This document shows, one piece after another, positions 387 to 1,649 of a stretch of 64,000 nt of DNA. This stretch comes from Escherichia coli. GTDB taxonomy: Bacteria; Pseudomonadota; Gammaproteobacteria; Enterobacterales; Enterobacteriaceae. Numbering within the stretch: the first letter of the stretch is position 1; the number at the start of each line of letters is the position of its first letter. The notes under the pieces were generated by a model. The model made no database searches, had not been told where the DNA came from, and worked only from the letters and a program-made list of their open reading frames with translations. The DNA lies in assembly GCF_030013595.1 (NCBI RefSeq), contig NZ_CP122768.1. The stretch is one strand, 5' to 3'. A program made the position numbers and the translations under genes.

Positions 387-1649
387 TTACGTACATATTG
401 TTGTCCCGGTAACGTCCTGATTCTGTACAACATTTTGAAATATTTTGCCGTTACGGGGTTGCAGAAATCGCCGTTTTTCCATCGTATTCTGCAAGGTAAG
501 AGCCGTAATGTCTGAACAGCATTTCCGGTCCTTTATGCCCCATCTGACCAGCAAGCCAGAACAGGTTAACGCCCTGGCTAATGTGCCGAGTGGCGAACGT
601 GTGGCGTGTCTGGTACGGATTGCGATAGCGTACACCAGCTTTTTTAAGGGTTGGTACCCAGGCTTTTTTCGGATCGCATCTGCGTTTGCCCAAGGGGCGC
701 GAGTTTTCGGATCGCTGAATATGAAGTCGCTCTTTAGCGCCGTGTAGGGCTTTTGTGCCTGAAGAGCTGCCAGCGCTTCGCTGTTCAGTTGCACTTTGCG
801 GGTGCCGGCTTTTGTTTTGGTGCTTTTGATTACCCCGACTACGCTTGCAGTCTGAACATGCGCGGTGTTGCCGATAAAGTCTATATCCGTCCAGCGCAAC
901 GCGCACAATTCTGAGCTACGCAGTCCAGTATTAAAGGCAAAGCGAAACAGATTTCGCCATTCCGGGTAATGACAGGCGTCATAGATTGCTGCCGTCTCCG
1001 CTGGTGTAAAGGGATCGACCTCGTAATCACCACTGCTTGGTGTGTTGTCCAATACGTGATACCGGCTGGCGCTGACTAGCGTGACAGGATTTATTGTTAA
1101 CAAACCATCGGTCACCGCTTCATCTATGGCGCTGCGCAGAAACGAAAGATTATTGCGGATCGTTTTCAGTTTTGTTTTTCTGCTGGCGATCCAGTTTTTT
1201 AGTACAGCAGGTGTCAGTTCTGATACATGAAATTTATGCAATGCTGACAGCGCCGACAAGCATTTTTCATAACCTCTAATTGTCGATGGTGACAGGTTAC
1301 GGTTCTGGCAGATAATCAGGTATTCATCCAGATAAGATTTTATATTTTTGTTTTTTTTCACTCCCCCGAACAACTCCAGCTTTTGGGAGTTGGGGAAGTA
1401 TTTTGCATATTCGAAGGTACCATCGATAATCTGATTTTTTATTTCTCCCAGCAGACGCTCGGCGTACTTCACACCGCGCGCGTTTACTTCCATTCTGGAG
1501 AGGGGCTCCCGACACAGAACCCCTTTATATGTAAAAGTGATAACCAGAGTGCTACCAGTTTTATGCTGCCGAATAGTTACTCCTCTAGGGAGAGATAATG
1601 ATCCTTGTTCTTTCTTGCCCATTTTGTAATCTCCATTAAGTCGACCCAA
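387..1649 (-). CDS. Tyrosine integrase (phage integrase family); reading frame broken by a 1-nt frameshift in an A6 run (plus-strand T6 at 664..669)
   Basis: 420-aa ORF with recombinase motifs (..FNTGLRSSELCALRW..) in the N-terminal three quarters; the conserved catalytic C-terminus (YQTRHTFATRH..LAGQMGH..RHYGSY) is encoded in the overlapping 451..906 frame. Confidence 0.8.
   Translation of the reverse strand: MGRLNGDYKMGKKEQGSLSLPRGVTIRQHKTGSTLVITFTYKGVLCREPLSRMEVNARGVKYAERLLGEIKNQIIDGTFEYAKYFPNSQKLELFGGVKKNKNIKSYLDEYLIICQNRNLSPSTIRGYEKCLSALSALHKFHVSELTPAVLKNWIASRKTKLKTIRNNLSFLRSAIDEAVTDGLLTINPVTLVSASRYHVLDNTPSSGDYEVDPFTPAETAAIYDACHYPEWRNLFRFAFNTGLRSSELCALRWTDIDFIGNTAHVQTASVVGVIKSTKTKAGTRKVQLNSEALAALQAQKPYTALKSDFIFSDPKTRAPWANADAIRKKPGYQPLKKLVYAIAIRTRHATRSPLGTLARALTCSGLLVRWGIKDRKCCSDITALTLQNTMEKRRFLQPRNGKIFQNVVQNQDVTGTTICT

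Follow-up and report, generated by a model that had tools for sequence, protein, structure and literature searches.

A frameshifted integrase in an ssrA-associated Escherichia coli prophage as a probable nanopore homopolymer undercall

The 64,000-nucleotide stretch of Escherichia coli DNA analyzed here, which we call the window, carries a prophage whose integrase gene is divided between two reading frames at a run of six A's (A6), where relatives have seven (A7). A comparison of public sequences makes it very probable that this missing base is a homopolymer undercall in a nanopore-only R9.4.1 consensus, and not a mutation of the organism. A7 is what we infer to be the true state in the strain; if so, the cell itself would carry an unbroken gene for the 390-aa protein WP_064226590.1, and intact Int together with Xis would integrate and excise the prophage at the 27-nt ssrA core. 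The preliminary description of this DNA had left two readings side by side, namely a sequencing error at a homopolymer and a genuine inactivating mutation; the former is now strongly favored and the latter disfavored, because A6 occurs only in one ONT-only R9.4.1 project, because a pair of clones within that project disagrees at the site, and because the other indels of the window are likewise single-base losses at long homopolymers.

The gene begins at an ATG at 1622 with GGAG ahead of it, the listed ORF 387..1649 starting at an upstream TTG (for the positions of this and the other features, see the table). In translation, the upstream frame is a recognizable integrase as far as ...ANADAIRKK, after which 91 nonsense residues follow up to a stop at 387, and the frame of ORF 451..906 reads ..KKAWVPTLKKAGVRYRNPYQTRHTFATRH..MGHK..RHYGS.. 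up to a stop at 451, which bears out the earlier placement of the catalytic C-terminus in that second ORF. The coordinates first given for the break all hold; only the estimate that three quarters of the protein lie in the upstream frame was slightly low, the native frame being kept through K320 of 390 residues (82%). With one T inserted into the T6 run, the two frames join into a single protein of 390 aa, 100% identical to WP_064226590.1, so that the switch point and the single protein expected of an A7 run were both correctly read. Apart from this one base the gene is the intact allele, with zero substitutions, and the same sequence in two RefSeq genomes is labeled by PGAP as "tyrosine-type recombinase/integrase, frameshifted".

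That the two frames are not chance ORFs follows from the domain content of the repaired protein, which has an Arm-DNA-bind_2 domain (PF12167, residues 12-79, E 6e-19), a SAM-like core-binding domain (104-180), and a Phage_integrase domain (PF00589, 206-373, E 3e-19), as is proper to a PF00589 tyrosine recombinase with an Arm-DNA-bind_2 N-terminus, and which also matches the integrase family phrog_1 of PHROG (E 5e-65). Alignment to Tn1549 Int places Arg-I at R235, Arg-II at R340, His-III at H363, and the probable nucleophilic tyrosine at Y373; the β-hairpin lysine, within STKTKAG, is K269 or K271, and the His-II position is held by Y337, a tyrosine instead of the usual histidine. As assembled, no single frame contains this set, R235 and K269/271 lying in the frame of 387..1649 and R340, H363, and Y373 in that of 451..906, and one added base brings them together. 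Judged from the sequence, the break after K320 would strip Arg-II, His-III, and the tyrosine nucleophile from Int.

Table. Positions of the integrase gene, its two frames, and associated prophage features in the window
Feature	Position	Strand	Details
Prophage integrase gene, tyrosine recombinase with DUF3596/Arm-DNA-bind_2 N-terminus	451..1622	-	Two frames as assembled
Zero-frame ORF as assembled	387..1622	-	411 aa: 320 native plus 91 out-of-frame residues
Downstream frame, catalytic C-terminus	451..672	-	Y337 (His-II position), R340, H363, Y373; numbering of the intact protein
T6 on the plus strand (A6 on the sense strand)	664..669	-	Frame-switch point; 7 bases in relatives
Heptamer A_AAA_AAG, upstream (0) frame	663..669	-	Codons CGA AAA AAG CCU
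Excisionase (Xis) gene	1577..1786	-	phrog_2917, E 3.9e-40; 46-nt overlap with the start of int; "excisionase" in some RefSeq records
att core, int side	292..318	-	27-nt duplicate of the ssrA 3' end
ssrA (tmRNA) gene	43396..43758	-	Second att core copy in its final 27 nt (43396..43422)
IS629-like IS3-family element	9922..11231		1310 bp; 25-nt terminal inverted repeats; GAA target duplication

The surroundings of the gene are those of a lambdoid prophage of ~43 kb (~319..43395) inserted in the 3' end of ssrA, with the 27-nt core directly repeated at both of its ends, Xis adjacent to int, and the int-xis pair at the ypjA-side end according to the annotation of relatives. The IS629-like element interrupts the DnaC-like helicase-loader (replication) gene of the prophage and is absent from the NCTC relative discussed below; it is a genuine second lesion of the prophage, compatible with a decaying element.

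The distribution of the two run lengths in public sequences is markedly uneven. The RefSeq set of complete genomes does not include the window itself; among its 5,426 E. coli genomes, 24 records match the gene at 94.7% identity or more, and 22 of these span 1322 nt, that is, the A7 form, the remaining two spanning the 1321 nt of A6; these two are ETEC1734 and ETEC4085, and they are the genomes with the PGAP "frameshifted" label. The intact protein is found on at least 256 public contigs (388 index blocks), and the extra T was present in all 10 loci fetched around it. A pattern scan that admitted either length returned the 29-nt, seven-base form in 5/5 IMG/VR and 2/2 metagenome matches, with the seventh base matched as N and its identity unread, and a scan of the GTDB species-representative contigs with the exact pattern of the A6/A7 site gave no matches, so that no GTDB species representative is the source of the window. 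A collection of 15 billion proteins contains none of three translations queried by exact match (the frameshift products of 411 aa and 420 aa and the C-terminal ORF of 151 aa), an absence that is informative mainly for sources with de novo gene calls (Logan), since NCBI records appear to be depositor-annotated and PGAP pseudogenes come without a protein. The possibility, raised at the outset, that homologous integrases naturally stop short of the junction or continue in the downstream part of the 387..1649 frame does not hold, as the homologues are continuous and proceed in the frame of 451..906. Neither of the marks by which a pseudogene would be recognized was seen, these being A6 in independent assemblies or on independent platforms and further decay within the gene. 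In the assembly of E. coli M114 (P0014), the same gene is truncated at an A8 run, at window 1351..1358.

The A6 assemblies appear to share their origin. The strains ETEC_1734, ETEC_4085, and ETEC_1738 all belong to PRJNA917806, in which 94 porcine ETEC/STEC strains were sequenced by Vereecke et al. in 2023 with ONT rapid barcoding (SQK-RBK004), R9.4.1 flow cells, and Bonito 0.4.0, and assembled with Trycycler or Flye followed by medaka 1.5.0, a short-read polishing step not being described (PMC10151945). The PHAGEBio ETEC collection (PMC11267873) was rejected as their source, since it consists of short-read drafts under another BioProject. We infer that the window is ETEC_1738 and hence the third A6 assembly of this project; ETEC_1734 and ETEC_4085 are nanopore-only assemblies, as the window would be through this assignment. 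The chromosomal backgrounds of the three differ: in its core flanks the window is only 97-98% identical to ETEC4085 and to strain rl0044.

Within the project, ETEC1734, which has A6, can be set against its clone ETEC1732, which has A7. Over 50 kb no substitution separates the two; they differ by 5 one-base indels, each in a homopolymer of 5 to 8 bases: one in gspL (T7/T6), two in an 878-aa ORF (T7/T8 and G5/G6), one in int (T6/T7), and one at bssS (T7/T8). Wherever a judgment can be made, as it can for gspL, int, and WP_124064400.1 (878 aa), it is the longer run that yields the intact catalogued protein, which identifies these indels as undercalls, present in both assemblies. The occurrence of A6 and A7 among near-identical prophages, and the disagreement of clones, are also what would be seen if the A run were a phase-variable (contingency) tract toggling Int within populations. 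We regard this as highly improbable, for the clone pair also differs at four unrelated homopolymers, a pattern that implicates the sequencing platform rather than biology, every non-ONT assembly examined has A7, and the tract has only 7 bases here, a run of that length being short for high-frequency phase variation.

The window can further be judged by its own error signature, for which two independent assemblies, its nearest, served as comparators: the NCTC contig UFZA01000002.1 (GCA_900448395.1) and the draft contig DBKRHK010000014.1. The former is 100% identical to the window at 1..291, ten lineage-specific flank SNPs included, and at 39293..45877, and its strain, with these identical chromosomal flanks, has an intact integrase; the latter, compared with window 13098..34337, is identical save at two positions. 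Over the pooled 39,456 bases there are 1 substitution and 4 indels, and all four indels are losses of one base in the window, in runs of 7 or 8. Sorted by their length in the relative, none of 161 runs of five bases and none of 59 runs of six differ in the window (0/220 together), as against 1 of 14 runs of seven and 3 of 8 runs of eight, so that the differences are all deletions, confined to long homopolymers, and climb in rate with run length. This pattern, with a 4:1 ratio of indels to substitutions, deletions only, a dependence on run length, and the same sites affected in unrelated strains of the project, is what residual consensus errors of R9.4.1 data look like, and is unlike strain divergence. 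An assembly riddled with errors throughout was considered and rejected: 20.6 kb of core chromosome show 0 indels against a relative of 98.9% identity, and the errors are limited to runs of at least 7. In the early region the window has a private substitution, A at 9457, which gives S182 in an HTH protein (8914..9825; WP_282870491.1 / WHG75536.1), a variant on record for two contigs only, the second being MDM4989824.1; its WP accession lies in the series first given to ETEC1734.

The four sites are the run in int, a run at bssS (7080..7086), an intergenic T run (20621..20627), and an A run at 28838..28844, and they differ in what they convey. The last of these is telling: the tail-chaperone gene of the relatives ends in GTT AAA AAA AAG TAG, a conserved, classical G/GT -1 slippery site, and the A7 of the window destroys both this slippery site and the stop of G, with the T frame left at +1, not -1. 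ETEC4085 has the same A7 there, and PGAP flags its chaperone as incomplete. At bssS, T7 gives a gene of 83 aa with an SD and an ATG, the better of the two models, and also occurs in short-read-derived public assemblies, the 83-aa allele being present on 15 public contigs and the 105-aa allele on 143; the T7/T8 difference at this site is ambiguous and is not clear support for an undercall.

It is against this background that a genuine and very recent slippage from A7 to A6 in the strain must be weighed, which would leave the 411-aa product and largely, though leakily, abolish excision and integration. Prophage integrases are often pseudogenized, homopolymers are natural indel hot spots, A7 runs among them, and such a mutation would sit well with the IS629-like insertion already present in the helicase-loader gene, with the truncation of int in the M114 assembly as well, with the indel-free core region of the window, and with the correct phase of the A_AAA_AAG heptamer and the shift-prone CC that follows it. 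We consider it unlikely all the same, given that A6 is confined to three assemblies of one ONT-only project on three backgrounds, that one of these has a clone with A7 from which no SNP separates it over 50 kb, that the gene has 0 substitutions relative to the intact allele, that the frameshift product is missing from public protein calls, and that the remaining indels of the window relative to independent assemblies are all single-base losses at runs of 7 or 8.

The preliminary description went on to propose that inactivation would lock the prophage in the chromosome. This is unlikely, since the deletion is probably an artefact, and even a real deletion would create an in-frame A_AAA_AAG, through which the lock would leak, the IS629-like element being a second defect. 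Were A6 real, a -1 slip on A_AAA_AAG-CC would restore the exact wild-type sequence ..IRKK-AWVPTL.., and the 411-aa main product would keep the arm-binding domain, the core-binding domain, and, with R235 and the β-hairpin lysine, the first half of the catalytic domain. Heptamers of the A_AAA_AAG class without stimulators shift at ~0.3% in E. coli, and at no more than ~3.7% in the best 3' context (PMC4066793), CC being the most shift-prone 3' dinucleotide reported (PMC5009743); roughly 0.3 to 4% of ribosomes would thus be expected to slip -1 and yield wild-type Int. On this analysis a real A6 would amount to a strong yet leaky knock-down of Int. It would not be programmed recoding, given that homologues do not share the two-frame layout. 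That A6 is real and that slippage of a few per cent makes it a "compensated indel", which throttles ssrA-prophage excision without abolishing it, is a reading we hold to be very unlikely.

Programmed -1 ribosomal frameshifting, in which the two frames would be the designed mode of Int expression, as in dnaX or the IS3-family transposases, would explain the perfect zero-frame A_AAA_AAG at the junction and the full-length integrase that a -1 shift would produce. We give this explanation next to no credence. The slippery heptamer is in place, but its stimulators are not, the sequence upstream lacking an SD-like (GGAGG-like) element and the sequence downstream offering no more than a hairpin of 4 bp (z of +0.48 against shuffles for a 101-nt fold); the zero-frame product ends in a 91-residue nonsense tail; and essentially all homologues, the induced phage phiES15 and the phage integrases of 87-89% identity included, are one continuous ORF, so that a conserved two-frame layout is absent.

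The undercall, which remains the preferred reading, has consequences that lie more in annotation than in biology, whose weight is small here, as the integrase, the excisionase, and the ssrA site are all ordinary. In nanopore-only R9.4.1 assemblies, single-base "frameshifts" at A or T runs of at least 7 lead to false pseudogenes, in this case of the integrase and of the G/GT tail-chaperone recoding site, and PGAP already passes on the "frameshifted" call in two RefSeq genomes. Homopolymer frameshift calls without accurate reads are thus an unsafe basis for claims of prophage domestication or "locking". If, on the other hand, the deletion were real, the site would be a neat case, found in nature, of -1 frameshifting that makes up in part for an indel.

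Several known systems help to place these observations. The nearest is WP_064226590.1 itself, in strains rl0044, ETEC1732, and the NCTC strain of GCA_900448395.1, which has the same 390 residues that the window encodes after addition of one base, at loci with the same neighbors (Xis, DUF4222, DUF5406, and SPFH genes) and the same ssrA site beside ypjA; these genes have 7 A's where the window has 6, and the gene is otherwise the same. The integrases of Escherichia phages phi467, LMessi, and PhiR12 and of Cronobacter phage phiES15 share 87-89% amino acid identity over 98-99% of the length, and, although these are different phages, their integrases are unbroken across the junction, with none frameshifted; phiES15 was obtained by UV induction, so its integrase/excisionase module is functional. 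The underlying module of integrase, excisionase, and ssrA site is ordinary and already catalogued. More distantly, Tn1549 Int and lambda Int (6EN0, 6EMZ, 1Z1G) belong to the same fold family as the window Int and have their catalytic motifs in the same order; Tn1549 Int aligns with it at E 1e-10 but at low identity, the window having a tyrosine at His-II and the assignment of Y373 coming from the alignment only. The homopolymer errors of ONT R9.4.1 resemble the differences seen here in being single-base deletions in runs of at least 7, with a frequency that rises with length, and in their recurrence across strains of one project and the disagreement of clones, a likeness drawn from assemblies, not from reads. 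The sites of the dnaX type and the cases of "compensated indels" in Atkins et al. 2016 (PMC5009743) share with the window the identical heptamer, in the correct phase and with a 3' CC, and the restoration of the native protein by a -1 shift, whereas the window is without stimulators and without conservation, and its expected efficiency is about 0.3 to 4%; the compensated-indel reading finds its likeness in the G-run cases of herpesvirus thymidine kinase.

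Four other homopolymer runs stand out in this prophage. One lies in the tail assembly chaperone G/GT (about 28479..29152), where the window has A7 at 28838..28844 and the closest independent assemblies have A8, reading GTT AAA AAA AAG TAG, the G/GT -1 slippery site. In the A7 version the stop codon of G is lost and the T frame is moved to +1; this run is probably another homopolymer undercall. The same A7 is found in ETEC4085, a relative with the same frameshifted integrase gene (int), and its chaperone is annotated by PGAP as "incomplete". In the N-terminal part of int itself, a T8 run (A8 in the sense strand) at 1351..1358 is intact in the window; in E. 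coli M114 (KNA42728.1, P0014) the integrase is frameshifted at its A8 run to give a 99-aa product, which makes frameshifts at homopolymers a recurrent finding for this gene among public assemblies.

The remaining two runs are T7 in the window. The first, at 7080..7086, lies just past the start codon of a bssS-family gene (6842..7093, minus strand) and is T8 in most relatives; T7 gives a Shine-Dalgarno sequence, an ATG and an 83-aa BssS-like ORF, whereas with T8 annotators have been pushed to an upstream GTG and 105 aa. Because both alleles are found in public assemblies (T7 on 15 contigs, T8 on 143), this run may be truly polymorphic. The second, at 20621..20627, is intergenic, with the HNH endonuclease gene on one side and the small terminase gene on the other, and is T8 in both independent assemblies compared (L032 and L037). 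As for substitutions, only one separates the window from its nearest relatives over 39.5 kb: position 9457 is A in the window, and in this assembly alone, versus C in 9 of 9 aligned relatives, which produces R182S in a helix-turn-helix (HTH) protein of the replication region (8914..9825).

Other observations concern inserted or rearranged segments and cargo genes (see table for those of the window). In some relatives, namely the clones ETEC1734 and ETEC1732 (L007/L008; 20311..25289) and loci L022, L027 and L028, the space from the ssrA core on the int side to the chromosomal gene ypjA is occupied by a tandemly placed P4-like satellite with an Arm-DNA-bind_3 integrase, Psu and Ogr/Delta; the window has no such satellite. 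In L022 (GCA_030346625.1, 3063..10046) the early-left genes, from xis to a 62-aa ORF, appear in two copies, inverted and head to head; the duplication is either genuine or an error in the assembly of long reads.

Inserted element and cargo genes of the window prophage
Feature	Position	Strand	Remarks
IS629-like (IS3-family) element	9922..11231		1310 bp; 25-nt terminal inverted repeats (TGAACCGCCCCGGG...); GAA target duplication
OmpC-family porin gene	about 14242..15339	-	cargo, late-regulatory region
DNA methyltransferase	about 16136..17182	+	cargo, late-regulatory region
tRNA-Gly(TCC)	17443..17517	+	cargo, late-regulatory region

The IS629-like element splits the prophage gene for a DnaC-like ATP-binding protein (helicase loader), and comparison with relatives found it in neither ETEC4085 nor the NCTC relative (GCA_900448395.1). 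The window prophage is probably replication-defective, irrespective of the state of int. In rl0044, an E. coli strain with an intact integrase, a related IS sits elsewhere, inside the DnaB-like helicase gene.
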